In this document: one piece after another, positions 2,853-63,110 of the stretch | How the letters are laid out: every line of letters begins with the position of its first letter | How positions within the stretch are numbered: the stretch's first letter is position 1 | From: Octopus vulgaris | Lineage: Eukaryota | NCBI GenBank assembly: GCA_951406725.2 | Contig: OX597819.1 | Span: forward strand, 100,192,001 to 100,256,000 | Length of the DNA stretch: 64,000 nt | Direction of reading: 5' to 3' | Translations under genes and position numbers: made by a program | The notes under the pieces: model-generated | What the model was told of the DNA's origin: nothing | Seen by the model: the letters and a program-made list of their open reading frames with translations, nothing else | The model's database searches: none

Positions 2853-3335
2853 TTACTCTTTTACTCTTTTACTCTTTTACCTGTTTCAGTCATTTGACTG
2901 CGGCCATGCTGGAGCACCGCATTTAGTCGAGCAAATCGACCCCAGGACTTATTCTTTGCAAGCCGAGTACTTATTCTATCGGTCTCTTACGCCGAACCGC
3001 TAAATACGCCACCATCGGTTGTTAAGCGATGTTGGGGGGACAAACACAGACACACAAACATACACACACAAACATACAGACACACAAACATACACACACA
3101 CACACATACACACACACACATATATATATACATATACGACGGGCTTCTTTTAGTTTCCGTCTACCAAATCCACTCAAAATGCTTTGGTCAGCCTGAGGCT
3201 ATAGTAGAAGACACTTGCTCAAGGTGCCACGCAGTGGGACTGAACCCGGAACCATGTGGTTGGTAAGCAAGCTACTTCCCACACAGCCACGCCTGCGGCT
3301 ATAGCTACTTGACACAAAGCCACTCCTGCGCCTAT
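2853..3335 (-). mobile_element. tRNA-derived SINE (family A) with internal (CA)n
   Basis: Reverse complement of head ggctgtgtgg..agtagcttgcttaccaaccacatggttccgggttcagtcccactgcgtgg, and tail ggtgctccagcatggccgcagtcaaatgactgaaac; same as 39345-39752. Confidence 0.9.
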
Positions 3336-7771: not shown

Positions 7772-10722
7772 TAAACAACATGGCGTTGGCTTTGCAGTGA
7801 GAAACTCACTACTCTCCTCAATAGAACCACCATCGGGAGGCACTGAGCGTATCCTCTCACTGCGCCTCTCGACTTCTTCTGGCTCAGTACATCTACTCAG
7901 CATCTATTCTCCCACTCTCAACAGCTCAGAGGAGACCAAGGACCAGTTCTACAAAGATCTCAACTGTGTCCTAGAAAATATACCAACGACTGAAAATATC
8001 TACCTTCTAGGGGATTTTAACGCTCGCGTGGGATCTGACCATGATTCGTGGCCCATTTGTGTTTGACACTTTGGTATTGGCAACATGAATGACAATGGTC
8101 AGAGACTACTCGAATTCTGCACATACCACAACCTGTGCATCACAAACACATTCTTCACCAGCAAGCCATCCCACAAGGCATCCTGGAGACATCCAAGATC
8201 TCACCACTGGCATCAGCTGGATCTCATCATTACACGGAGATCCTTTCTGAGTTCCACTCTATTGACCCGCAGTTACCACAGTGCGGATTGTGACACAGAC
8301 CACTCACTAATTAGAAGCAGGGTGAGGATTCTCCCTAAAAAAGTCCATCGCTCCAAGAAAGTGGGCCGACCACGCATCAACACCGCCAGAACCTCGGACC
8401 CTACACTGCGAAAATGTTTTGCTGCTTCTATCAAGGTTGCCCTCAGTAGCTGCCCAACCTCCTCTGCTGAAAGTAGGTGGGACTATATCAGGGAAGCCTT
8501 GTATACGACATCATTGGATACTTTCGGCATGAGAGAAAGGCAAAACCCAGATTGGTTCAATGCTGGGCTCTCAGAGCTGGAGCCAGTTATCGAAGCAAAG
8601 CGTGCAGCTCTGGTGCAATACAAGAGTGACTCTTCTACAAAGTCACTCGAAGAACTCAGAAAGGCACGAAATAAAACCCAACTGACAGCCAGATGCTGTG
8701 CAAATAGGTATTGGCAGGAAATCTGTCAGAGTATCCAGTCAGCTGCTGACAGGGGCGACACCCGTGGGATGTATGCTGGTTTGAAGAAGGCCCTCGGTCC
8801 ATCCGCAACCAAGTCAGCCCCTCTGATATCAACTACTGGAGATCTCATCAGGGATCAAGGCAAGCAAATGGATAGATGGGTGGAGCACTACCAGGATCTC
8901 TACTCACGGGAGACCACATTGTAGCTGAGGCTGCAGTCGAGAGTGTCAAGATCTTGCCAGTCATGTGCGAACTTGACAGTCCGCCATCTATAGCAGAGCT
9001 CACCAAGGCTGTTGACTCCCTAGCAAGAAATAAGGCTCTGGGAAAAGACGGCATCCCCTCAGAGATCATCAAAGCCGGCAAAACACCATCCTGCTTCGGC
9101 ACCTTCATGAGCTTCTGTGTCAGTGCTGGGAAGAGGGTACAGTCCCTCAGGATATGCGGGATGCCAACATCATTACGCTCTACAAAAACAAAGGTGACCG
9201 TGGTGATTGTAACAATTACCGTGGTATATCCCTTCTAAGCACTGTTGGAAAGACCTTTGCCCGCGTTATCCTGGCCAGGCTACAACTACTTGCTTCTCGA
9301 ATCTATCCGGAATCGCAGTGTGGCTTTAGAAGAAGCAGATCAACTATCGATATGATATTCTCCATACGCCAACTTCAGGAGAAGTCCAGAGAGCAGAAAA
9401 TGCCATTATATATGGCCTTCATTGATCTAACAAAGGCTTTTGACTCGGTAAGCAGAACAGGCCTCTTCCTCCTGCTCCAAAAAATCGGATGTCCACCAAA
9501 GCTGCTGAGGATCATCAAGTCTTTCCATGATGACATGCAAGGCACCATACAGCACAACGGTTCAACATCAGCCGCCTTCCAAATAAAAAACGGGGTAAAG
9601 CAAGGCTGTGTCCTCGCTCCTACATTGTTTGGCATCTTCTTCTCACTCTTGCTGTCACATGCCTTTCAGACATCAGATGATGGAGTGTTTCTGCACAGTA
9701 GAAGTGACGGGAAACTGTTCAATCTCTCGCGCCTGCGTGCCAAGACCAAAATCAGAAACGTCCTGATCAAGGAGATGTTATTTGCTGATGATGCCGCTCT
9801 GGTAACACACACAGAAGAAGCCCTCCAAAGGCTCATTAACTGTTTTGAGCAACCATGTAACGACTTTGGCTTAGCTATCAGCCTTAAGAAGACCAACATC
9901 ATGGGCCAGGCTACATCGGACATCCCAAACATACATATTGGAGACCACAGATTACAAGAGGTGGAGAAGTTTACCTATCTGGGCTCTACCGTCACCTACA
10001 ACCTATCCCTTGACGCTGAGCTCAATATACGCATTGGCAAGGCAGCTGCTGCGATGGCCCAACTCTCCAAACGGGCTTGGGACAACAATAAGCTGACCAA
10101 GACCACAAAAATGAAGATCTACCAGGCATGTGTACTCAGCACTCTACTGTATGGAAGCGAGACCTGGACGCTATACACACGCGAAGAGCGTCGCCTAAAC
10201 ATCTTTCACCTGCGCTGCCTCCGAAAAATCCTCCACATCAAATGGCAGAATCATATCCCCAACAAAGATGTCCTCAGGCAAGCAGGAATACCAAGCATGT
10301 TTGCACTCCTCACACAAAGACGTATGAGATGGCTTGGGCATGTTAGCCGTATGAAAGATGGCAGAATCCCCAAGGACATACTCTACGGAGCGCTTGCTAG
10401 GGGTACTAGGTCTGTGGGTAGACCGATCTTGCGTTACAAGGATGTTTGCAAAAGGGATATGAAGGCCTGCAACATCAACATTAGCGGTTGGGAGGCAGTC
10501 GCCGGCAACCGTGGAGAATGGCGACGTACAGTAAAAGAGGGTATACAGAGGAGTGACAGAAAGAGAGAGGAGAAATGGAAAGAAAGGAAGAGACATAAAC
10601 AAGAGACCATGGCACTACAATCAGCCAGGAACAGTCTTCGCTACGTTTGCAGTACCTGCCAGAGGGAGTGTTTGTCCAGGATAGGACTACACAGCCACAG
10701 CAAGAAATGTAACAGGAAATAA
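7772..10722 (+). mobile_element. RTE-clade LINE, 5'-truncated, APE + RT + C-terminal Cys/His motif; one stop (8064-8066) and two frameshifts (~8920, ~9085)
   Basis: GVGFAV, LLGDFNARVG, SWRHPRSHHWHQLDLII, DCDTDH (APE); NYRGISLL, QCGFR, FIDLTKAFD, GVKQGCVLAP, LFADD, FTYLGS (RT); CSTCQRECLSRIGLHSH. Confidence 0.97.
9154..10722 (+). CDS. RTE LINE reverse transcriptase ORF fragment (522 aa)
   Basis: Uninterrupted ORF covering the RT motifs and C-terminus; part of the disrupted ORF above. Confidence 0.85.
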   Translation: MRDANIITLYKNKGDRGDCNNYRGISLLSTVGKTFARVILARLQLLASRIYPESQCGFRRSRSTIDMIFSIRQLQEKSREQKMPLYMAFIDLTKAFDSVSRTGLFLLLQKIGCPPKLLRIIKSFHDDMQGTIQHNGSTSAAFQIKNGVKQGCVLAPTLFGIFFSLLLSHAFQTSDDGVFLHSRSDGKLFNLSRLRAKTKIRNVLIKEMLFADDAALVTHTEEALQRLINCFEQPCNDFGLAISLKKTNIMGQATSDIPNIHIGDHRLQEVEKFTYLGSTVTYNLSLDAELNIRIGKAAAAMAQLSKRAWDNNKLTKTTKMKIYQACVLSTLLYGSETWTLYTREERRLNIFHLRCLRKILHIKWQNHIPNKDVLRQAGIPSMFALLTQRRMRWLGHVSRMKDGRIPKDILYGALARGTRSVGRPILRYKDVCKRDMKACNINISGWEAVAGNRGEWRRTVKEGIQRSDRKREEKWKERKRHKQETMALQSARNSLRYVCSTCQRECLSRIGLHSHSKKCNRK

Positions 10723-10822: not shown

Positions 10823-10826
<4 letters not shown>

Positions 10827-10951
10827 CCGGGTTGATTCTTAACCACATTGTCTCCCATAGCAGAGTAAAATTAATTTATTATAGAAGGATGCCAACTGTT
10901 TCATTCAAGAAATCTTCAAACAGGAGCTTCCTGAAGATTTCTCTTGAATGA
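10823..10951 (-). mobile_element. Decayed copy of the palindromic HHR mini-element (family of 35302 and 47998), in (TA)n
   Basis: cccgggttgattc..ttaaccaca..atagcagagtaaaattaatttattatagaagga and gagcttcCTGAAGAtttctcttgaatga match the 48 kb copy. Confidence 0.8.
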
Positions 10952-12142: not shown

Positions 12143-12183
<41 letters not shown>

Positions 12184-12418
12184 TTATATATGAGGATAAT
12201 ATCGATATTTAAGTGTCGAAATTATCAAGTGGCCAGCATGAAAGAAATACCTTACAAAGGTAAAAAAAAATTTTAACAATTAAAAATGAGGGTGTCTAAA
12301 AGACACCAACATGCCGAAATAGCAGTCGAAACACTGACTATAGTACCACGTTAAATGTTCATATCGCACCATGAGGTAAAGCGGAGGGACAAAACATACA
12401 AGCAAAAATTATTGAATA

Positions 12419-12478
12419 ATTCAAGATCCAAGGATTTCTGGTTCTGCTTTAGATAAGCTTTACCGTCATCAATTGAAT
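12419..12478 (-). ncRNA. Type I hammerhead (U3 variant) in the inverted arm
   Basis: Reverse complement of the motif at 12596. Confidence 0.75.
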
Positions 12479-12595
12479 ATATCAAGGGTACATCAATACA
12501 GATATATATATGCACAGCAAACGATATACTTACATACACGAGCGTCGTACATACATACATATGCACGTATGGACACAGCCAGTTTGAATCGCCCG

Positions 12596-12655
12596 ATTCA
12601 ATTGATGACGGTAAAGCTTATCTAAAGCAGAACCAGAAATCCTTGGATCTTGAAT
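12596..12655 (+). ncRNA. Type I hammerhead (U3 variant)
   Basis: ATTCAA-TTGATGA-c GGT aaa GCTT atcta AAGC aga ACC a-GAAA-TCC tt GGA-TC-TTGAAT; AUC triplet ending at 12649. Confidence 0.78.
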
Positions 12656-13078
12656 TATTCAATAATTTTTGCTTGTATGTTTTGTCCCTCCGCTTTACCT
12701 CATGGTGCGATATGAACATTTAACGTGGTACTATAGTCAGTGTTTCGACTGCTATTTCGGCATGTTGGTGTCTTTTAGACACCCTCATTTTTAATTGTTA
12801 AAAATTTTTTTTACCTTTGTAAGGTATTTCTTTCATGCTGGCCACTTGATAATTTCGACACTTAAATATCGATATTATCCTCATATTTAAATTTATATAA
12901 TTCGTTATTATATTCACTGCGGTGCTTATTTTAACCATATCGTACTTATGCGGTGATTTGGCGGGCGATTCAAACTGGCTGTGTCCATACGTGCATATGT
13001 ATGTATGTACGACGCTCGTATATGTAAGTATATCGTTTGCTGTGCATATATATATCTGTATTGATGTACCCTTGATAT

Positions 13079-13138
13079 ATTCAATTGATGACGGTAAAGC
13101 TTATCTAAAGCAGAACCAGAAATCCTTGGATCTTGAAT
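13079..13138 (+). ncRNA. Type I hammerhead (U3 variant), tandem copy
   Basis: Identical to the 12596 motif; AUC triplet ending at 13132. Confidence 0.78.
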
Positions 13139-13285
13139 TATTCAATAATTTTTGCTTGTATGTTTTGTCCCTCCGCTTTACCTCATGGTGCGATATGAAC
13201 ATTTAACGTGGTACTATAGTCAGTGTTTCGACTGCTATTTCGGCATGTTGGTGTCTTTTAGACACCCTCATTTTTAATTATATAT

Positions 13286-13934: not shown

Positions 13935-15160
<1,226 letters not shown>

Positions 15161-20834: not shown

Positions 20835-21280
20835 TCTACAAGAATCACTAGCACGCCGTACAAACTATTTATCGGCATTTCGTCTGTCTTTTGCGTCCTG
20901 AGTTCTAATTCTGCTGAGGTCGACTTTGCCTTTAATCGATTCGGGGTCGATGAAATAGGTACCAATGAAGCACTGGAGACGGTATAAATGACATACACCA
21001 CGCCAAAAAAAAAAAAATGAATAAATAAAATAAAATTCTACGCCTTGTGGCAATAATAGAAAACATTTCTTCCATAAAGACGGCGAGCTCTCAGAATCGT
21101 TAGCATACCGGACAAAATCTTAACAGCATTTCGACTATCTTTCCCTTTGAGCTCAAGTTTAACCGAGTACGACTTCCAGGTCGATGAAATACATACTATT
21201 TGAGCACTAGAGTCGATGAAATCGGCTTACACATCTTCAAAATATCTCAGGCTTTTCCCAATAGTAGAGAAGATTATAAT
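20835..21280. mobile_element. Two degenerate family B SINE copies
   Basis: ctgagttctaattctgctgaggtcgactttgcc and ggcgagctctcagaatcgttagca motifs. Confidence 0.75.
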
Positions 21281-30004: not shown

Positions 30005-30505
30005 AGTATGTTGTTATCTTAAAGTTACAGTCCCATGGAAGGGAGAAACATCGTTTTCAGTTGGCCATGACATATTTTCTGTGCCCGTATGTTTTCCAAG
30101 GGGAGATAAGCGCCTACACCCAGAAAAGCCAGCCTTCAGAAACTAGTTTACTAATTTCAGAGTCATTGCTTATCATAAGTCTGGAGTAGCATGGCTTGCT
30201 AGCTGTATAAATCTCTCTGAGAAAGGTAATATTTCTCTTTTCGAAATCAGTGAATGTATATCACTTGAAATATATATGTTTTCAAAGGCGAATAGGCATC
30301 GACAACTAGCAGATTGATGATGAGCAATGACTTTGAAACTAGTCACTGAAGGCTGGCATTGTTGAGTAGAGATGCTTATCTCCCCTTTAACAACATAAGG
30401 ACACAGAAAATGTGTAATGGCCAACTGGAGACGGTGTTCCTCGGGCTAAATATCAGTAGTACTCTTCCCTTTCGTGGGACTGTCACATTAAATTGACAAA
30501 ATACC
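30005..30505. repeat. Diverged long inverted repeat (fold-back element) between (TA)n tracts
   Basis: acagtcccatggaaggga..cagttggcca..attttctgtg..aggggagataagc..gccagccttcag is mirrored at 30330-30490. Confidence 0.8.
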
Positions 30506-33498: not shown

Positions 33499-34210
33499 CA
33501 TACATACATACATACATACATACATACATACATACATACATAATAAAATGAGGTTCCAGGTAGAATCAAGTACTTGAAAAGGTATGCACCATGTAGGGTT
33601 GGGTAGTCTCTGTAGTTCCGGCCGATATATATTCATATATACGTACACATACTTATATATGCATATCTGTATGCATATATGTGCGTGTGCGTGCGTGTGT
33701 ATTTATATATGAGTGGGTGTATGCATGTGTGCGTGTGTCTTTGCGTGTGTGTGTGTGTGTGTGTATGAGTGAGTTTATAAGCTCCATAGCAACAGAAGCA
33801 GTATTAATACCAGAAGGTAGTATTTATCTCCCACTTTACGTGTAAGCTTTGTTAAAACTGAATTCCGCGTTATTTACTATGAAAGGACGTCTCATACGGA
33901 AACGTGGTGCTTACAAGCACTCGTGTTTATATTATTGAAGGGCGATAACCGCCTGCCAAGTCCGCTGCATCACCCGCCGCAATAGCAGCCAGATCATGTC
34001 ATTTCGCCCTATTTTGGGTTTATGAATGACAGACATCCAGCGCACTTATAGCATCCGTTTCCTCCGTCAAAGATAAATAGAACATCAGTGTCTATTCCGG
34101 CAATGGTGATGCAAATAACCTATGGACTTATCAAAAACTAATTCATAGTGACAGAAGTAGTATTAATATCAAAAAATAGCATCTATCTCAAATGGTAAAT
34201 AATGCATTGC

Positions 34211-34483
<273 letters not shown>

Positions 34484-34485
<2 letters not shown>

Positions 34486-34853: not shown

Positions 34854-34895
34854 ACTATACACGAGACGTCCGCATGCGGACGTCTCGTGTATAGT
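34854..34895. repeat. Perfect 42-bp palindrome
   Basis: actatacacgagacgtccgca|tgcggacgtctcgtgtatagt. Confidence 0.97.
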
Positions 34896-35247: not shown

Positions 35248-35301
<54 letters not shown>

Positions 35302-35307
<6 letters not shown>

Positions 35308-35500
35308 TTTATAGAAGGAGTTTCTACAGGACTAGAATTGTTTCATTCAAAAGAAATCATCAGGAAGAGCTTCCTGATGATTTCTTTTGAATGAAACAGT
35401 TCTAGTCCTGTAGAAGCTCCTTCTATAAAATAAATTAATTTACTCTGCTATGTATTGAGTACCTTATTTACTGTGGTTAACCCCGACTCAACCCGGGACC

Positions 35501-35503
<3 letters not shown>
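35302..35503 (+). mobile_element. Palindromic HHR mini-element inserted in (TA)n
   Basis: 134-bp near-perfect palindrome 35302-35435 plus a ~68-bp unique tail ending cccgggacctac; (TA)n on both sides. Confidence 0.92.
35367..35419 (+). ncRNA. Type I hammerhead (mirror copy on the minus strand ~35318-35367)
   Basis: GAGCTTC-CTGATGA-tTTC tttt GAAt-GAAA-CAG ttctagtc CTG-TA-GAAGCTC; GUA triplet ending at 35412. Confidence 0.87.
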
Positions 35504-35553
<50 letters not shown>

Positions 35554-35564
35554 TTTAATATTTG

Positions 35565-35950
35565 TTCATTTATATGTTCATTTGACTGTGGCCATGCTGG
35601 AGCACCGACATAAAGGCTTTTAGCCTTTAAGAAATTGATTCCAAGACTTATTCTTTGTAAACCTAGTACTTATGTTATCAATCTCTTTATGCCGAAACGC
35701 TAAGTTCCGGGGACATAAACACACCAACATCGGGTGTGAAGCGATAGTAGAGAGACAAGCACTGACACAAAGACACGCACACACATAAACACATATACAT
35801 ATACGACGTGCTTCTTTCAGTTTCTGTCTAGCAAAACTAGTCACAAAGATTCGGTCGGTCCGAGGCTATTGAATAGACTAGGCCAAGGTGACACGCAGTT
35901 GGACTGAACCCATGTAGCGGGAAAGCAAGATTCTTACCACACAGCCACAC
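35565..35950 (-). mobile_element. tRNA-derived SINE (family A), diverged
   Basis: catttgactgtggccatgctggagcacc tail and cttaccacacagccac head. Confidence 0.85.
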
Positions 35951-36919: not shown

Positions 36920-37211
36920 TACACGTGGAAATATAAGGGTAATATATGAAAAATCAACGAAAATACATATTGCAAATAGAAAAAGGCTATTTATGACAGG
37001 TAGCGACAAATATATACATTTAGATTGACTGAGGTAGTAATACGAGTCATAAAGGTCATTATAATACGAGTCATAAAGGTTATTATAATGACCTTTATGA
37101 CTCGTATTACTACCTCAGTCAATCTAAATGTATATATTTGTCGCTACCTGTCATAAATAACCTTTTTCTATTTGCAATATGCATTTTCGTTGATTTTTCA
37201 TATTTTACGTA

Positions 37212-37212
<1 letters not shown>
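36920..37212. repeat. Near-perfect fold-back (arms ~120 bp) with a 24-nt tandem duplication at its centre
   Basis: 36944-37061 mirrors 37083-37203; taatacgagtcataaaggtYatta occurs twice. Confidence 0.92.
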
Positions 37213-37277
<65 letters not shown>

Positions 37278-39344: not shown

Positions 39345-39508
39345 ATGTGGCTGTGTGGTAAGTAGCTTGCTAACCAACCACATGGTTTCGGGTTCAGTCC
39401 CACTGCGTGGCATCTTGGGCAAGTGTCTTCTGCTGTAGCCCCGGGCCGACCAATGCCTTGTGAGTGGATTTGGTAGACGGAAACTGAAAGAAGCCTGTCG
39501 TGTTTATG

Positions 39509-39543
<35 letters not shown>

Positions 39544-39752
39544 TTGTGTGTCTGTGTTTGTCCCCCTAGCATTGCTTGACAACCGATGCTGGTGTGTTTA
39601 TGTCCCGGTTACTTAGCGGTTTGGCAAAAGAGACCGATAGAATAAGTATTGGGCTTTCAAAAGAATAAATCCCGGGGTCGAGTTGCTCGATTAAAGGCGG
39701 TGCTCCAGCATGGCCGCAGTCAAATGACTGAAACAAGTAAAAGAGTAAAAGA
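39345..39752 (+). mobile_element. tRNA-derived SINE (family A), full length
   Basis: ggctgtgtggtaagtagcttgct...gggttcagtccc head, central (TA/TG)n, tail ...gactgaaacaagtaaaagagtaaaaga. Confidence 0.92.
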
Positions 39753-40149
39753 ATATATGTAGGTGTACCTGCGATTATGAATACAAAACTGACAACAGAA
39801 AAATGACAGGGAGAAAAAAACTTGGTATGGATATCACAAATTAGAAACAGATTAAACCTGTCTTTGGAAGGAGGAAATTGTAGAATCGATTTAAAAAACT
39901 TAGAATAATTGAAAAATACACGTATTGTCGTGCATCAAGCCATAATAGAAACAGTCGGAAGTGAAGGAGAAACATAGAAGTCTCACAAACACCTAATAGT
40001 GGGCACATACACACACTTGATGCATGTGCCCTCTGTTAGGTATATATGAGCGTACTCATTATTTACTTTGGTTCACGGTTCGGCATCTTTGTGTTAATGT
40101 ATTTGTTGTTGGGGTATGTGTCTATAAATGTGATTGTTCGCTCGAAAAG

Positions 40150-43070: not shown

Positions 43071-43189
43071 AAATTTTCATTTTTGAGAATAATTCCAGTG
43101 TAAAACTTTTATTATTTTTATCGACGTCGTCGTCGTCATCATCATCATCATCATTACCATCATCATTAATGCTATTATTATTAAACTTA

Positions 43190-43405
43190 GGCGGCAAGCT
43201 GGCAGAATCGTTAGCACACAGGGCGTAATGCCTGGCGGTATTTCGTTTGCCGCTACGTTCAGAGTTCAAATTCTGCTGAGGTTGACTTTGCTTTCATCCT
43301 TTCGGGGTCGATGAATTAAGTACCGTTTACGCACCGGGATCAATGTAATCAACTACACTCCTCCCACACAATTTCAGGTCTTGTGCCTATTGTAGAAAGA
43401 TTATT
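43190..43405 (+). mobile_element. tRNA-derived SINE (family B) followed by (ATT)n/(AAT)n
   Basis: ggcggcaagctggcagaatcgttagc...gagttcaaattc. Confidence 0.88.
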
Positions 43406-43428
43406 ATTATTATCATCATCATCATCAC

Positions 43429-46852: not shown

Positions 46853-47639
46853 TATATATATATATATACATACATACATACAAATATATATATATACAAA
46901 CTCGCATACATAGTTTTTATATATATAGACAGAAAAATATCTGAAGTATCTAAGAGAAAATATTGAGAAAACCATTTTTCTTCATAACGAACTATTACTA
47001 AGACTTAGAGATATTAAATTCACTTTCAGTGCGCATTAAGATACAACTCTTAACTAAGACACGAAACTAGTGGAAGTAGGTCGACGGTTTGTAAAGAAAG
47101 CAAAATTCCGAGAGTCTCGAAAATATTAAAATACAACACTTACTATATAAGTTAACCATGCTTTTCTGTAAGATACTGGCCATCTGATATTTTCATATTC
47201 ATCAGATTTTGATGAATATTAAACAAAGAAATGGAAGCATCAGATTAATTATCTGCTGTGTCCTTTCTGGCCTTTTGAAAACTGAGAGAAATAAGGCCAA
47301 GAATGACTTAATAAATAAATGCAAATGTCCAGTTGGTTCTTCGTAATTGCTAGAACATCGGAAGGGATGCCTTACCATATCTGTTTCACAACCTGGAAGG
47401 TTTTCAGACGGCAACTCCTGCGATAAGAATGATTCTAGGGTGCATCTATGTTTAGCTCCATTTGTACAACTCCTACAGCGTATAGCCACGACATTAACAT
47501 GTATGGAAAGCCATTAATCCACCATTAATAGTCTTGCCGGCATTTGCACCCTGGAAAGCCCATTCGAAATACATCACACACGCACGCACACACACACACA
47601 CATACACACACACACACACACATGCGCACACGCGTATTC

Positions 47640-47845
47640 TTTCGATCTTTTACTGGTTTCATTTATTTGACTGCGGTTATGCTAGAGCACCGGTTTAAAG
47701 GATCTTAGTGGAAGAAATCGACGCCAGGACTATTCTTTGTAAGTCTAGTACTTTTTGCACCGGTCACTGTACATAACCGCCATGCCTCGGGGACATAAAC
47801 ACACCAGCGTCGGTTGTCAAGTGATGGCATGGAGACAAAAACTCA
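47640..47845 (-). mobile_element. 3' half of a family A SINE
   Basis: tttgactgcggttatgctagagcacc...gacataaacacaccagcgtcggttgtcaag. Confidence 0.8.
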
Positions 47846-47911
47846 GACACTCATAAATATATACATCTCTCCATCTCTCTCTCTCTCTCTCTCTTTCTCT
47901 CTGAAATGAAT

Positions 47912-47997
<86 letters not shown>

Positions 47998-48000
<3 letters not shown>

Positions 48001-48192
48001 GGTCCCGGGTTGATTCGGGGTTAACCACAGTAAATAAGGTACTCAATACATAGCAGAGTAAAATTAATTTATTATATAGAAGGAGCTTCTACAGGACTAG
48101 AACTGTTTCATTCAAGAGAAATCATCAGGAAGCTTCCTGATGATTTCTCTTGAATGAAACAGTTCTAGTCCTGTAGAAGCTCCTTCTATATA

Positions 48193-48198
<6 letters not shown>
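47998..48198 (-). mobile_element. Palindromic HHR mini-element inserted in (TA)n; perfect 132-bp palindrome 48067-48198
   Basis: Centre ggaag|cttcc at 48132/48133; same family as 35302, opposite orientation. Confidence 0.93.
48131..48181 (+). ncRNA. Type I hammerhead (identical mirror copy on the minus strand 48084-48134)
   Basis: AGCTTC-CTGATGA-tTTC tctt GAAt-GAAA-CAG ttctagtc CTG-TA-GAAGCT. Confidence 0.87.
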
Positions 48199-51798: not shown

Positions 51799-53769
51799 TG
51801 AAGAAGAAGAAGAATATACAAACATGTATATTTATTATAAAAATAGGAACTTGTGAACTGTTCGGGGGAAGGAGACGAATTTTTTTTCCCCGAAGGCATG
51901 TAAAAAGATTTATATATATAAATCTTATTTTTTCTTTAATTCTACCTGAGCAAGTTTTCTCGTGAGCAACAATCTCTGCCATAAACTACGTTTTATTCAC
52001 CCCCACCGCCCAAAAGAAGTATAAAAAAATAACAGGCAGACGAACGATAAATATAGTGATACTCATATATATATATAAGCAACGCTAAATAAAGCTAGAC
52101 AACGTCAGAGACCAAGTGAAGGGGAATACGTAATCAATCATAATATAATGGAAACGATATGATATCAATCGTATGGCAGAGATTTAGCTGAGTTGGAATA
52201 AACTTTGGAACATTCTAAATTTTCTAACGATGTCTCTTGTCATTTTGTTGGACTTTAAACATTCCGAATTTCTGATGCTGATACTGTGCATTTTTTTGTG
52301 TTTTCTGTCGTTCTTTTTTATAGTTAGTTTGATTCAAGTTATTTTGTTTTTTCTTTTTCATTTCACGCTATAGTTTTAGGCTTGTGGAAATAGAACGGAA
52401 TGAATGTGTAGTCGCTTCTTTGGCAATTTCTCGTGACCTAAGTGTACAAGAATTATTCGAACGCAGTACTTTGAAGGCATATGCTACCTTGTCAATTCTA
52501 AGGTGTCCCAATATCTTACAATTGTAAACTATTCGACCTATCATACCTATTTACAGTCATATATAATGAGCTATCGATAATTAAATGACTTTGTCAGGGA
52601 AACAGTTCAATAAAAGTGAGAATATACTAGCCATTTCTGTTTCGTTGCTATGGGAAACTAGTTGCCATGCGAAAATAGATGGGGTTTGATTTCTTTCCTA
52701 ACGTTACTGTTATTACATTCTACAGAGTGTGACGGAAGAAAATTGTCCAACTCACGACCAAAATTTATGAAAAAAATAAACGCATAAAAATTTTACCTTC
52801 GTGAAATCTTTATGGTAGCGTTTTTGCCTGGAAACTGGATTATAGAATAGATAATCAAAGGAATTGGTGAAAATCTGTGTTAAGAAAAGGCTATTTTGTA
52901 GGAAAGGGTCACGAAACGGACACTGAGTAGGAAAATTGGAAAACTGGGTTATGGGAAGGACAGTTAGCAGAAGAGGAGCAAAGGTGAGTTATGGAAAGTG
53001 GAGCGGAAGTAGTAAAAAACTAAGCTATGAATTGGAGAATTACAGAACTGTGTTATGAAAAAGATAGTTATGATGAAAGAAAACTGGAGTTCGAAGTTGT
53101 TTTAGAACACCATGGATGACTATCATCATTACAACTATCATATTCAACATTATCATCAATTATTATTAAAGAAATTGCTATTCCTTTCTTCTTTTTACAA
53201 AAAAGAGATCGGATACTGTGTTTGTAGTTTGAAGCAGTTGATTCTGAGCTAAATTATACAATTGATTTCGCTTTATTGCATAATCACGGGATTGGTTATC
53301 TTATGCAATAAACCGTTGCGTGTTCAATTAATCGAATTCGTACATTAAGCAATAAATTTGGAAATTTCATTATAATGTAGGAAGTACAGATTTGGAGATA
53401 TTTAGCACATGTATCTGTTATATAATTAAACCAGAACAAAGTTTTATACGTAGAGCAGATTTTGTCATTTGTTATAGAGCATCGATCCATAGGTTATAAA
53501 AAGAACAAAGCTTTCCAGTTAAAGTTACTCCGAGTTCGTTACTCCGTCAAGCAACATCTGTTTATAAGTAATTTACTTATGTTCCGGTTAGTGTAGGTAG
53601 TACCTTTTATTGATATCGATCGACATGACAACTGGTTTAATTATTACGCTCTTTGACGTTTTTTCAATTATATTAGATATTTTCAATGACCAAATATTAG
53701 CCAAATATTTTATTCCGATAACGTCTTTCACACCCTGTGATTCAAACAATGAAATTAAGTAATCCTTTC

Positions 53770-53975
53770 TACTATAGGTTCTTGGCCTGAAAGTTAGAGG
53801 AGGAGGGGTAATCGATTACAACCCCAGTGTGTAACTAGTACTTAATTTATCGAACCCCGAAAGGATGAAAGGCAAAGTCGACCTCTGCGGATTTTGAACT
53901 CAGAAATTAGCGACGGGCGAAATACCGCCGAGCATTTCGCCCAGCGTGCTAATGATTCTACCGGCTCGCCGCCCT
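53770..53975 (-). mobile_element. tRNA-derived SINE (family B)
   Basis: Reverse complement of ggcggcgagccggtagaatcattagcacgctgggcgaaatgc... Confidence 0.88.
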
Positions 53976-54124: not shown

Positions 54125-54424
54125 CTACATTTAATAGAAGAGGAATTATGTACATTAATTACAATTGACTGATACTTGTCCTCATCTTGTTTGTTGTTAA
54201 CACAACGTTTCGGCTGATACACCCTCCAGCTTTCATCAGGTGTCTTAGGGAAACTTCGAACCTGGGTTCTCATTCCTAACGTATTTTTTGATGTTGTTAT
54301 TATTCAGGTCACTGCCTGGAATCGAACTCGGAATCACTATGCCATATGCCCACGGGTGTAGTGGTTAAGAGCGCGGGCTACTAAACCCAAGATTCCGAGT
54401 TTGATTCTGGGCAGTAACCTGAAT

Positions 54425-54486
<62 letters not shown>

Positions 54487-54635
54487 CAACATCAACAAAT
54501 ACCTTAAGAATGAGAAACCAGGTTCGAAACTTCTCTACGACATTTGATGAAGACTGGAGGGTATATCAGCCGAAACATTGTGTTAACAAACAAGATGAGG
54601 GCAAATATCCGTCAATTGTAAATAATGCAAATAAC
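54125..54635. mobile_element. Head-to-head pair of tRNA-headed elements, each tRNA-like head + (AAT)n + minimal hammerhead + tail
   Basis: Right arm: ggtgtagtggttaagagcgcgggctactaaacccaagattccgagtttgattc. Left arm (minus): gggcatatggcatagtg..attccgagttcgattcc. Arms are reverse complements through caagatgagg.caa.tatc.gtcaattgtaa. Confidence 0.85.
54199..54244 (-). ncRNA. Minimal type I hammerhead
   Basis: Minus strand: GACAC-CTGATGA-aa GCTG gagggtgtat CAGC c-GAAA-C/G-TT-GTGTT; degenerate mirror copy at 54539-54584 (+). Confidence 0.8.
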
Positions 54636-55104
54636 GCGAAAAAGAGTAAGGAAAAATATGAAGTAGAGAGGAGTGAGAGGGATCGAGCCCAATAACGGAC
54701 TGTTAATTTATTAATCAATCGCGAAAAAGTTAGAAGTAAAGTAGACCAACGTGAAATTCGAACTCAAAACGCAGAGAACCAGAAGAAATCTATGCCACAC
54801 TCTAACGACTCTGCCAAAACGCTACCAAATTAATGCATTACCGATTACTAAAAAAATAATTGAATCGATTTAAAACTAGGACATCTGATAATAAATTTAT
54901 AATAAAACTAACTTTATTGATATATTTCAGGATTGTAATTTTTTTGCGAAATAAACTCACGCATTATATATTTGTTCTTCCCATCAGCTTTATTACTGTT
55001 TTTATTTCTGTATCCTTTGTCTAAATCTTTCTTCACTAATCCTGTGAGCTCTTCAGCAACTCTCCATCCCACGTGTATCCTCCTGTTCTGTTTAGACCAT
55101 TGGG

Positions 55105-55260
55105 CTGTTTGGTCATCGAAGAGGTCACAGAAAGTGTGACGAAACATTTAGACAAAGTACACTAAAATAAGAGCAATAATAATGCTGAAATAACGAACGA
55201 ATATATAGTGCGTGAGTTTATTTAGCAATAATTAAACAGACCTTACCGAAATATAACATT
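55105..55260 (+). mobile_element. HHR-bearing repeat family copy 2
   Basis: gtca-TCGAAGA-g GTCAC agaaagt GTGAC-GAAA; downstream aatatatagtgcgtg..gaccttaccgaaatataaca. Confidence 0.65.
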
Positions 55261-58139
55261 ATTTGTTTTTACAGAATCTTACCAAACAAAGGGCAAAGTA
55301 AGAACAGCCTTTATTCATTACTAAATTCACAGTTAATGCTTTACAAATTTAATCAACATTGAATTCTTAATTAAAGGAATTTCCAGCCAAAAAATTGTTC
55401 CGGAACGCAGACAAATGAAGAAAGCCATCCAGGAGATGAGCTAGACAAATGAAATCAGCTCAAGGTGGCTGTGGTATACAGGTTATTCCAGGTGGTACCT
55501 TCGTGCAGTTGAAGACAAGTTCAATCCTTACTGCCCCACTCAGGCTAAGCGTAAATGATAAATGGCGAAACGTTTGTGAGCCTGATATATCTACTTATGC
55601 TACGTAAGGTTTTCCGACATTGCGATAACTACTGTAATTTCTGCGTGGGGCAAAGCATCTCCAATGCTTATTTCACTTAAGATAGATATACTACAAGGGA
55701 ATCTGAACTCCGATGGTCTTTTAATTTGTTGAAACTTTAACAATATCCAGAATTTTTGCGATGACTTATTTCAAAATATGAAATAACGATGATATAATTC
55801 ATCTACAGAATTAGACGTTTCTAGAATCGCTTTAGTCATATCAAACCAATCAAATATGTACTCATATTTGGTGTTTCCCTATTTTATTTTTACTCAAAAT
55901 GAAAATAAATTTTATGCAATTAAGTGAAATTGACTATATTTGAATATTCAATTAACGAGTCCTTTTTACATCGATGTATCGCTAAACAGTTTGGTGCTTT
56001 GCCAAGTTATGTAATTACACATGTATTAAATAAAGTGCCTTTTAAAACGGGTTTATGCTTTTTATAACGAAGTATTTTTTTGCAATAACAAGGATTGTGG
56101 ACTGGCAGAATAGTTAGAATAGCGGACAAAATGCATAGCGCCATCTGTTTCGGTTCTTTTTGCTCTGATGTCATATCCTGCCGTGGTCAGCTTTGCTTTC
56201 TTACTTTCGCGGAAGATAAACTTAAGTATCGAGTCCTAGGGTCCACAACATTGACTAGCTTTCCATTTACTGAAACTGAGGTCCCTGTGTCTCTAATTAA
56301 GAAACAAGTATTGTCTACAATAGCATAAATCTTTAATAATTCCCATCTATGATTATAATACTATTGCTCTGTACTCCACTTCATTGACGGAGAATAGTTT
56401 AGGCTATCATTGTTCTCATATGAAATCCCACTGGTGGTTACTTAACATTTCCTCTTTCCTGAAGTAATAATGCCGATTCAGTGAACATACATACACCTTG
56501 CATAAATTTCTCTTATTTTGCCTCAGTAAGAAATCATTCTTATTATTGCCTTGAAGCAGCGATTGCCTCAAAGCAAGTGGTATACATAAATTTTGTGTCC
56601 TATAATAGAAGATATTCACAATTCTTAACATTGCCAGCAAGTGTCTGATATAACTTGCATTCATTTTAATTTTATACTTTTTATACTTTCTTCTAACATT
56701 TGTACCTGCCTGTAAATGACAGCATAGATTTTTCCAAGAATGCAAGTTAAAAAAAGTAACCATCCATTTTTTTTCTTCTGTATTTCTATCAAATTTGGTA
56801 AACACTTCTGTCTCTACAGCTTTCTTCTCATATTGCTTAAAATAGCTCCCTTACGCTATTTACCAGTTTCTTTTACAGAGTTCACCTCATTAATTTCACA
56901 CAGCATTCATTCTTTTCGAATTCTGTCTGATGTCTTAATTACCAAGACTTCATGTACACAGAACATAGCATCATCCTTTACCACTTTTCTCTCTCTATCT
57001 CTCTTCCTCTCCTTCTCTGTTAATCGCTCTCTCTCCCTTGCTCTCTCTCTTTCTGGTTAACTATCTTTCTTTTACTCTTTTCCCCCTCTTTCCTGCCAGC
57101 TCTGATACATTCTCCATATTTCATCGCAATGTAACCTGTCGCCCATTATTGTTTCCCTCTATGCATCTTTTATACAACTGACAATACAGGCCTCCATTTT
57201 TCTTAGTCAGCTATAACCTTTCCTAATTATATAACCTTTTTATCACTTACTTGTCAAGACATTCTCTCCGAGAATTCTCTTAATGATTCCGTCTAACATG
57301 CCGAGATCTGCCTTCTTCAAGTGAACCACATTCATCAGAGATTCTGCCACTGGAATTACTATAAAGTTTAGGAGCCAACTTCGTTGAATAACCTACAACA
57401 AATAGCAGTAAATCTTCCTGAAATAATATTCTACCGTCTTAAAAATTGTAGTAAGCCTTGAAATATAAAATACAGCATGAAAAACAAGATGGTCACGGAT
57501 GGGACGAATTTGATCAAATTTACTTCAAAAGAAGGCAGTACATTTCTAAAAACATTTCTAAATAACACTGAAAATTGCTTGGTTATTGCGAGAATGTCCT
57601 CGATGAATTAGATTAAGATTGATTTATATAATCTAATTTAAATATAGAATACTTTACCGGAATATAACATTCATTCCACTATTTAAATGGTAGATAATTA
57701 TTTTATCATCATAGGAAGGAGGAGTTGCTAAGTTAATCTCCATGAATGTGAACTCAGAACCAAAAAAGGTCGAAAGTAAATAAAATTTTGTTAACGATTC
57801 TGCTAAACCACAGCTTCATCGATTGGGTTTAATAAAAACGAACACCAGGATTATATAAGTAAATATAATAACGATTACAATAAATGAGTGAAAATGTAAG
57901 TATACAACATTATAGCTACAATATAAAGATAGTAATAACAAAAGTTATTATTATACTATAATTGCAATGCTAATTATAATAACTATGCACTTTATCCATC
58001 ATAGCGTTTCTTACATACTATCATTAGTATTCTATCCGGATTTCGCATCAACACCCTGCTAATAGTTTAGCATTGTAACATTTTAATGCAAGAAACTAGC
58101 ATCAGTCTCACCAAATTGAAAACAGTTTCATTATTAAAG

Positions 58140-58680
58140 ACAGTTATATTCCGCCGAGGTTGACTTTGCCCTTTATCTTCTCGGGGTCGATAAAATAAGT
58201 ACCAGTGAAACACTGAAGTTGATGTAATCAATTAGTCTCCTCCCACCAAAATAATTATCAGTTGACAACCGGGTTCGATGCAATCGACTTAATCCGTCAC
58301 CCAAGGCTACTGGTTTTCTGTCAAAATTTGAAATCATTATTAGAGGCGATTAAAGTAGCGAGCTGGCAAAATTGTTAGAGCGCCGAACAAAATACTTAGC
58401 GGCATTTCATCCGTCTTTATGTTTTGAGTTCAAAAGACTCAATATAATTGATAAAAGACTCAATATAGTTGATAAATTCCTCCACCTTTCAAATTTCAGG
58501 CTTTGTAGTCTATAGCAAGAAAAAAAAAAAGAAAGTCTTATAAGAGGCCACTGGCAGAAACACAAGACTGTCAGACAAAAATTACTGTACGTTCTGATTT
58601 GAAACTCAACTTGAGACACTTTGTATTCCTTCCTTCCGTGATCAATAAAACAAAGTACTAGTAAAGTACTACTACTAGGT
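58140..58680 (+). mobile_element. Cluster of degenerate family B SINE fragments
   Basis: ccgccgaggttgactttgcc, gcgagctggcaaaattgttagagcgccg. Confidence 0.75.
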
Positions 58681-60050: not shown

Positions 60051-60234
60051 ATTCCGAAAACAATAATGTGAATAAATATGTATTAAATTTAACACAGTAA
60101 TCTGAAAGTTAAAGGTTAAAAAGTAATAAGCAGCATCTCTTGTTCACAGGTATGCCTCGTTAACGATGAGCTGTGGTTGAACAGCAACACCAACAACAAA
60201 TTAATTTGCTTATGTAGCTATTTATTTGTTATTA

Positions 60235-60875
60235 TTGCCTACAAGGGGCTAAACATAGAGGAGACAAACAAGGACAGACAAACGGATTAAGTCGACCCCA
60301 GTGCGTAACTGGTACTTACTTAATCGAGCCCGAAAGGATGAAAGGCAAAGTCAACCTCGGCGGAATTTGAACTCAGAACGTAGAGACAAACGAAATACTG
60401 CTAAGCATTTCGCTGGGTGTGCTAACGATTCTGCCAGCTCGCCTTATATATAGTGTCTTGCTCAAGAACACAACACGCATCCCGGTCCGGGATTCGAACT
60501 CACAACCTCACGGTTGTAAGCTCTACGCTCTGACCACTGAGACATGCGACTACTACTCTTTACCCATTACTTGTTTGAGTCATTTGACTGTGGCCATGCT
60601 GGAGCACCGCCTTTTAGTCGAGCAAATCGACTAGTACTTATTCTATCAGTCTCTTTTGTCGAACCGCTAAGTTACGGGGACGTAAACACACGGGCATCGG
60701 TTGTCAAGTGATATGGGGGGACAAATACAGACACACACACACACATATGTATACGACGGGCTTCTTTCAGTATCTGTCTACCAAATCCACTCACAAGTCT
60801 TTGGTTGGCCCGAGGCTATAGTAGAAGACACTTGCCCAAGGTGGTTGGTAAGCAAGCTACTTGCCACACAGCCCT
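60235..60875 (-). mobile_element. Three adjacent SINEs (families B, C head, A)
   Basis: 60235-60445 family B; 60450-60550 family C head; 60555-60875 family A; all on the minus strand. Confidence 0.88.
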
Positions 60876-62949: not shown

Positions 62950-63110
62950 TATATATTAGAGGAAAAGGACAACACAAACCAAGGCAGGACAAGTATCTCA
63001 AGTCATTTATATTCAAGCCATTTCTAATAAAGTTTTTTCCTTAAAATATTGTAAATGACTTGAAATAACGCCCTGCCTTGGTTTTTGTTGTCCTTTTCCT
63101 TTAATATATA
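62950..63110. repeat. Short fold-back element, ~65-bp arms and ~30-bp spacer
   Basis: tatatattagaggaaaaggacaacacaaaccaaggcagg..tcaagtcattta is mirrored by taaatgacttga..cctgccttggtttttgttgtccttttcctttaatatata. Confidence 0.88.

Follow-up and report, generated by a model that had tools for sequence, protein, structure and literature searches.

The palindromic element at 35302-35503 of the 64-kb stretch of Octopus vulgaris DNA analyzed here (the window) can be identified with high confidence as the last ~135 bases of a Penelope-like retrotransposon (PLE), carrying an inverted copy joined head-to-head and lying within a (TA)n run; the remnant is probably Hydra-like. Variants that distinguish one copy of the element from another recur on both of its arms, and this mirroring is real and beyond chance, but it is expected of a PLE end and is not new, because both arms of such an end would be made at insertion from one source. 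That the arms were indeed made at insertion is likely. With moderate confidence, the best explanation as a whole is a truncated PLE whose arms were formed from two primers.

Organization of the Two Full Copies

Two full copies are present in the window, copy A at 35302-35503 and copy B, which lies on the minus strand, at 47998-48198, each with arms of 66 nt (Table 1). Palindromy extends to 66/66 positions in B and 64/66 in A, and in both cases the element is larger than its palindrome, with a tail of 68-69 nt lying beyond the sense arm only. The outer ends, at tail start and at tail end, are common to A and B while the flanks are unrelated; segmental duplication was accordingly ruled out, the flanks sharing only a SINE-like repeat (72.5%) in opposite relative orientation. 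As the earlier note had observed, the centres differ, A having a spacer of 2 nt and B none, yet the difference constitutes weak evidence because one 2-nt slip within a short AG repeat interconverts the two.

Table 1. Coordinates of the three copies of the element, their parts and their targets within the 64-kb window.
Feature	Coordinates	Strand	Remarks
Copy A, left (TA)n target	35248..35301		~54 nt
Copy A, inverted (tail-less) arm	35302..35367	-	66 nt; carries both unmirrored changes, 35321 and 35338
Copy A, spacer	35368..35369	+	2 nt; reads as stem I 5' strand of the hammerhead, hence sense-arm sequence
Copy A, sense arm	35370..35435	+	66 nt; two mirrored variants, 35386 in loop II and 35428 beyond the ribozyme
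Copy A, type I hammerhead layout (putative)	35367..35419	+	descriptor match, controls, Hydra-clade table and fold energy; Rfam does not confirm
Copy A, one-sided tail	35436..35503	+	68 nt, single-copy
Copy A, right (TA)n target	35504..35551		48 nt
Copy B, inverted arm	48133..48198	+	perfect complement of the B sense arm, no spacer
Copy B, sense arm	48067..48132	-	with hammerhead layout
Copy B, tail	47998..48066	-	69 nt; differs from the A tail by a single indel and a single substitution
Copy C, inverted arm and centre	10919..10951	+	with 10922-10930, the pairing of stem I reaches 9 bp
Copy C, sense arm and tail	10823..10918	-	interrupted by several deletions, some stretches replaced; the copy lies between (TA)n runs

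Probable Identity as the End of a Penelope-Like Element

PLEs generally possess an adjacent inverted, 5'-truncated copy and a tail of 30-40 bp on one end (PMC8557442, available portions). A head-to-head inverted, 5'-truncated copy is likewise found in all three copies in the window, as is a one-sided tail, although in A and B this tail measures 68-69 nt. Both flanks consist of (TA)n in 3/3 copies while such runs make up 3.9% of the window, and (TA)n is targeted by 26 of the 27 Hydra families listed in the supplement to PMC8557442 (counted by eye); this target is common to the Hydra and Naiad clades, and is therefore not diagnostic alone. A stem II closed by a U.U pair, as seen in the hammerhead layout described below, characterizes 14 of the 25 Hydra families tabulated in the same supplement (also counted by eye). 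The small hairpin of the tail resembles, by eye, the 3' ends of three Hydra consensi, a resemblance that was not counted as evidence.

Several more specific assignments were considered and rejected. Naiad elements are defined by the absence of a canonical hammerhead in the available text of PMC8557442, and a full motif is present here; non-LTR retrozymes need head-to-tail tandem hammerhead units in the portions available of 10.64898/2026.07.22.740005, and the copies described here are single and head-to-head. As given in the available supplement to PMC8557442, Hydra-1_Obim differs from the element in both its hammerhead and its 3' end, and the Octopus Naiads differ as well. Short-motif searches of that supplement, in which line breaks could hide matches, returned no exact match for the element or for two further inverted structures of the window, near 12 kb and 37 kb. 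Elsewhere, O. vulgaris PLEs are described as abundant and recently active, with 31 families and 336 recent insertions, and the repeat library of that study may already hold this element's family (PMC13282606, in part).

The copies are ~200 nt long and non-coding, without an open reading frame (ORF) linking the element to a PLE protein. EN+ PLEs encode a telomerase-like reverse transcriptase and a GIY-YIG endonuclease, and the Hydra clade is further marked by its position in reverse transcriptase phylogeny and by a C-terminal endonuclease that lacks the CCHH motif. Among the eight window ORFs scanned, two matched RVT_1, both unlinked to the element; the one long ORF of the window is a reverse transcriptase (Pfam RVT_1) for which the best of the 120 matches listed is an Octopus bimaculoides protein (76% identity). 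Such brevity is normal for 5'-truncated PLE insertions, the median length in Chlamydomonas being 128 bp (PMC9977147, in part).

Two readings that would place the element outside the PLEs were weighed against this identification. A short, non-coding palindrome within (TA)n invites comparison with a MITE or Helentron-type DNA element, as these families are commonly described, in which inverted repeats would be kept alike by transposition, and some MITEs do target (TA)n. MITEs are, however, defined by terminal inverted repeats at both ends, whereas the repeats here are not terminal, the 68-69-nt tail lying beyond the right arm of A; moreover, the arms abut and each is filled by a hammerhead layout, so that such an origin is very improbable. 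Scarcely credible is an artefact of library construction or assembly, whether a fold-back chimera or polishing that overwrote one arm with the other: assemblies do have difficulty with the inverted structures of PLEs (PMC8557442, in part), but the inversion halts at an internal base that A and B have in common, spares the unique flanks and leaves the tail single, and A retains two arm differences.

A Hammerhead Layout in Each Arm

Read outwards from the centre, each arm shows the layout of a type I hammerhead. In A, stem I comprises 7 bp (35367-35373/35413-35419), the core occupies 35374-35380 and the GAA 35393-35395, stem II consists of 3 bp closed by a U.U pair, stem III consists of 4 bp with a loop of 8 nt, and the cut is predicted to fall after 35412. 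A descriptor of this layout matched five sites in the window (the sense arm of A, both arms of B, and sites at 2339 and 54239), compared to none in 50 shuffles and a mean of 0.027, with a maximum of 1, in 300 Markov simulations; shuffles of the unit itself yielded one match in 20000. These statistics are generous, given that the descriptor was written after the sequence was seen.

The hammerhead fold (-10.2 kcal/mol) lies within 0.3 kcal/mol of the minimum free energy fold (-10.5 kcal/mol), while single-strand folding of the arm is no better than that of shuffles (z -0.89). Rfam returned no Hammerhead_1 match on the arm, reporting only Hammerhead_3 (13.9 bits, E 0.9, gathering threshold 48.5); at the control site, 2333-2405, Hammerhead_1 was detected at 30.5 bits (E 2.5e-6), itself below the gathering threshold of 34. 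At gathering thresholds the whole window gave no Rfam matches, and by E-value the region 35250-35550 gave 48, all under gathering, mostly generic hairpins and with no hammerhead listed; microRNA and snoRNA readings of this region were dismissed as chance, sub-gathering matches. The terminal repeat contains the core and three stems of a type I hammerhead, beyond chance by a post hoc descriptor, and so holds a putative ribozyme; stronger support than these statistics comes from the tabulated Hydra-clade hammerheads cited above.

Mirrored and Unmirrored Variants

Comparison of the four arms of A and B revealed that 4 of 66 columns vary, two in mirrored fashion and two not. The mirrored pairs are 35351/35386 in A versus 48149/48116 in B, and 35309/35428 in A versus 48191/48074 in B, such that both sense-arm differences are mirrored exactly as the earlier note, which described locus-specific variants on both arms, had claimed. 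The unmirrored changes, at 35321 and 35338, are private to the left arm of A. Were the arms independent, the chance of finding both sense-arm differences among the four left-arm differences would be 0.0028, or 0.0003-0.001 if the identical base is required. Because grouping the four arms by locus costs four steps while grouping them by side costs six, the arms are coupled at each locus and do not form separate left and right lineages; the expectation that arms pair by locus is thereby borne out for the two full copies available. What this coupling does not establish is the further proposal that one arm was copied from the other at or after each insertion, since two cDNAs made from one RNA would mirror each other equally well, and continuing intra-palindrome conversion is disfavoured by the two unmirrored changes in A.

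The positions of the variants are likewise informative. With the addition of a decayed copy, C, in which hammerhead position 7 carries a mirrored variant, there are three mirrored variants, all at positions that the ribozyme leaves free: one in loop II, one beyond the motif and one at that unconstrained core position. Both unmirrored changes in A disrupt stems (I and III). The joint chance of this split is ~0.015, a figure that rests on five sites and leaves out a deletion in loop II of C. The split fits source-gene variants filtered by ribozyme function and followed by later decay on one arm, and it argues against continuing conversion. The unmirrored changes in the left arm of A, copy C and the identity of the element as a PLE end are points absent from the earlier note.

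Template-switching within a hairpin and conversion are both means by which the arms of a palindrome are corrected. It is conceivable, though unlikely, that a palindromic mini-element moves as a whole through transcription and retrotransposition, its arms being homogenised occasionally by one of these processes. The outer ends of A and B are identical and their centres lie one 2-nt slip apart, in keeping with such inheritance; in addition, mobilisation in trans is possible for PLE ends (PMC3846280, in part), and an active non-autonomous PLE has been described in Chlamydomonas (PMC9977147, in part). Set against these points, two unmirrored changes persist in A, C differs in both centre and arm end, and the whole RNA is predicted to form a hairpin of ~-114 to -121 kcal/mol with the ribozyme buried inside it, so that the confinement of mirrored variants to positions free of ribozyme constraint would go unexplained.

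Centres of Either Polarity and the Formation of the Arms

An HMM search of the 64-kb window found copies A, B and C only, with no further copy and no longer copy. The decayed third copy, C (10823-10951), has an inverted arm that stops ~41 nt short of those of A and B, and its sense arm carries an unmirrored 2-nt deletion, located in loop II. Because 10922-10930 extends the stem I pairing, it was counted as family sequence, and the tail-less arm of C therefore holds 9 nt of family sequence that are missing from its tail arm.

A comparable asymmetry exists in an element at 12176-13279, which lies between (TA)n runs, is unrelated to the A/B/C family, and is composed of three units that are 99-100% alike: one inverted, one in sense orientation with a 63-nt tail, and one partial tandem unit. 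A hammerhead layout is present in all three units, with U replacing C at core position 3, and the element is a second, very young PLE-like family with a putative hammerhead. Its inverted arm includes 117 nt absent from the sense arm, 116 of which match the element's own third unit.

The arm that is longer at the centre thus varies among elements, being the sense arm in A (by 2 nt), neither arm in B, and the inverted arm in the two others, by 9 nt of stem I in C and by 117 nt in the 12-kb element. The inverted arm is nested within the sense arm in A and B, as simple fold-back of the tail-bearing strand requires; such fold-back cannot supply the extra family sequence in the tail-less arms of C and the 12-kb element, and two joined cDNAs therefore fit better than copying from arm to arm.

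Purified PLE protein has been shown to cut and extend both strands of its target, and to start at two sites bounding the tail (PMC11167929). If the present element behaved as did that PLE in vitro, its endonuclease would cut both strands of the (TA)n target, after which one DNA end would prime reverse transcription at the tail end and the other at the tail start, these being the two known start sites. Both cDNAs would then extend across the hammerhead, ending within the 5' strand of stem I or close to it, and a few complementary bases would allow their 3' ends to be joined. Under such a scheme both arms are copied from RNA of one source gene, and variants of that gene would appear in both, as the mirroring of variants in A and B suggests; later mutations, such as those at 35321 and 35338, strike a single arm.

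We regard this two-primer route as an evenly balanced proposition. It would explain why the outer ends are fixed, why a tail is borne on one side only and why centres of both polarities occur, although one-sided tails are allowed by it and not predicted, given that no difference in start site between strands was seen in vitro (PMC11167929). Certain observations can be turned against it: the sense arm of C is damaged, and its centre sequence may have been lost later; the 12-kb element could have arisen by fold-back together with one switch between identical units (201/201); and the spacer-less centre of B fits self-priming equally well. The evidence on arm formation comprises three copies in a single 64-kb window.

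Fold-back, the main idea of the earlier note and close to the published self-priming reading, is a possible but doubtful origin of the arms. It holds that the first cDNA, on reaching the self-complementary bases of stem I at the PLE end, primes itself and copies itself. Consistent with this scheme, B is perfect and has a self-complementary centre, the spacer of A reads in sense orientation like a hairpin loop, short palindromes are also found at the 12-kb and 37-kb junctions, and the junction palindromes of PLEs have been read as self-priming on an antisense template (PMC3846280, in part). It encounters difficulty in the extra family sequence of the tail-less arms of C and the 12-kb element, and leaves unexplained the shared stopping point of copying, which in A as in B is the tail start.

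The two-primer route can be extended, tentatively, to the statement that PLE inverted ends in general are two independent cDNAs begun at the tail-bounding sites, with synthesis tending to stop at the 5' strand of stem I. In the small sample available, the distance from the start of the sense arm to the hammerhead core is 4-6 nt in A, B and the 12-kb element and nil in C; in an exceptional element near 54 kb it is 65 nt. One possible cause of the stop is that RNA stem I and its cDNA mirror re-form, stripping the cDNA end off its template. A two-primer reading of PLE inverted ends was not found in the literature searched, which consisted of openly accessible papers.

Other Inverted Elements and Repeats in the Window

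The window is 35% G+C and rich in microsatellites and repeats. The site at 2333-2405 is a canonical type I hammerhead with a palindromic loop III, flanked by inverted repeats at 2208-2273 and 2601-2665, and a decayed second copy occupies 2709-2857. The 54-kb element (54146-54634) is an inverted pair (135/159 identical) with a PLE-type minimal hammerhead at 54239 and, at its centre, a tRNA-like, SINE-like piece (labelled by eye). Beside a (TA)n run, 36931-37216 forms a palindrome with arms of ~125-135 nt in which no hammerhead was found, its centre being a short tandem duplication, as from junction slippage. Older inverted pairs of ~75% identity lie at 30043-30442 and 54904-55269, where similarity begins, by eye, at decayed hammerhead-like cores; the latter has a relative at ~37.3-37.6 kb. 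Further inverted pairs are located at 62950-63110 (54/61 identical) and 34210-34485 (68/75, with a central (TA)n run), and a perfect, spacer-less, G+C-rich palindrome of 42 bp that is single in the window lies at 34854-34895, 400 nt left of A.

Two abundant, dispersed repeat families, SINE-like by eye and of 68-86% identity, are also present, the first at 13940-14910, 20841-20995, 43189-43410, 53760-53973, 58148-58434 and 60232-60451, and the second at 2862-3290, 35577-35949, 39346-39755, 47635-47866 and 60554-60873. Inspection of the large family at 13.9, 14.5, 20.8, 43.2, 53.8, 58.1 and 60.2 kb found no paired arms. A LINE-like element at 7780-10722, which we take to be of RTE type, has endonuclease-like and reverse transcriptase regions that a stop and a frameshift break up, and ends ~100 nt left of C.

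Comparison with Known Systems

In L1 twin priming, two target ends each prime a cDNA, and the result is a 5' inversion joined by microhomology in which each cDNA represents a different part of the RNA. The cDNAs proposed here would, by contrast, cover the same part and so generate a palindrome.

Among PLEs, members of the Hydra clade share with the element a (TA)n target and a type I hammerhead near the 3' end and, by eye, a short stem II closed by U.U in 14 of 25 families and an identical 4-bp stem III and cleavage base in 3 of 25; loop III is 1-3 nt there and 8 nt here, and the present element lacks an ORF (PMC8557442, available portions). Penelope-13_HM is alike in having a 5'-truncated inverted copy and a hammerhead on both strands (PMC8557442, in part). 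The pLTR of the EN+ Penelope elements of Adineta vaga similarly displays head-to-head repeats, a junction palindrome and a tail on one repeat only, but its arms are ~180-220 nt as opposed to 66 nt, and its tail is 31 nt as opposed to 68-69; no target-site duplication is visible here, the target being (TA)n (PMC3846280, in part).

Poseidon PAc of Anolis, characterized in vitro, has an AT-rich target and a hammerhead upstream of two tail-bounding start sites for reverse transcription, and both strands are cut and extended, as we propose for the present element; its hammerhead overlaps the start of an ORF, of which there is none here, and the inverted copy is unaddressed in that study (PMC11167929). 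Finally, type I hammerheads in dispersed short copies are also known from metazoan PLE minimal hammerheads and from non-LTR retrozymes (PMC4209133; 10.64898/2026.07.22.740005; both in part), from which the present motif differs by a stem III of 4 bp, a loop of 8 nt and the lack of G10.1-C11.1. In Schistosoma, opposite-strand hammerhead pairs are ~100-700 bp apart (PMC4209133, in part), whereas here the motifs abut, and the head-to-tail tandem of the retrozymes (10.64898/2026.07.22.740005, in part) is absent.

Implications

The feature itself is ordinary, a truncated PLE insertion with a known type of inverted end, and its value is that of a probe, the formation of the tandem and inverted ends of PLEs having been named an open question (PMC8557442, in part). 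Short recent copies keep arms, centre and tail within 200 bases, and this makes fold-back, two-primer formation and inheritance of a palindromic master separable by counting, within one genome, the polarity of centres and the haplotypes of arms. Such copies also resemble MITEs or microRNA hairpins and may be misannotated as such. If read through, the element would yield a 66-bp double-stranded RNA in which, as fold energies suggest, the ribozyme is buried, and which could feed small-RNA silencing of the family. Should the formation of two cDNAs and their stop at stem I prove true, one step would explain the inverted repeat, the one-sided tail and the junction palindrome of PLE ends, together with a non-catalytic role for the hammerhead.
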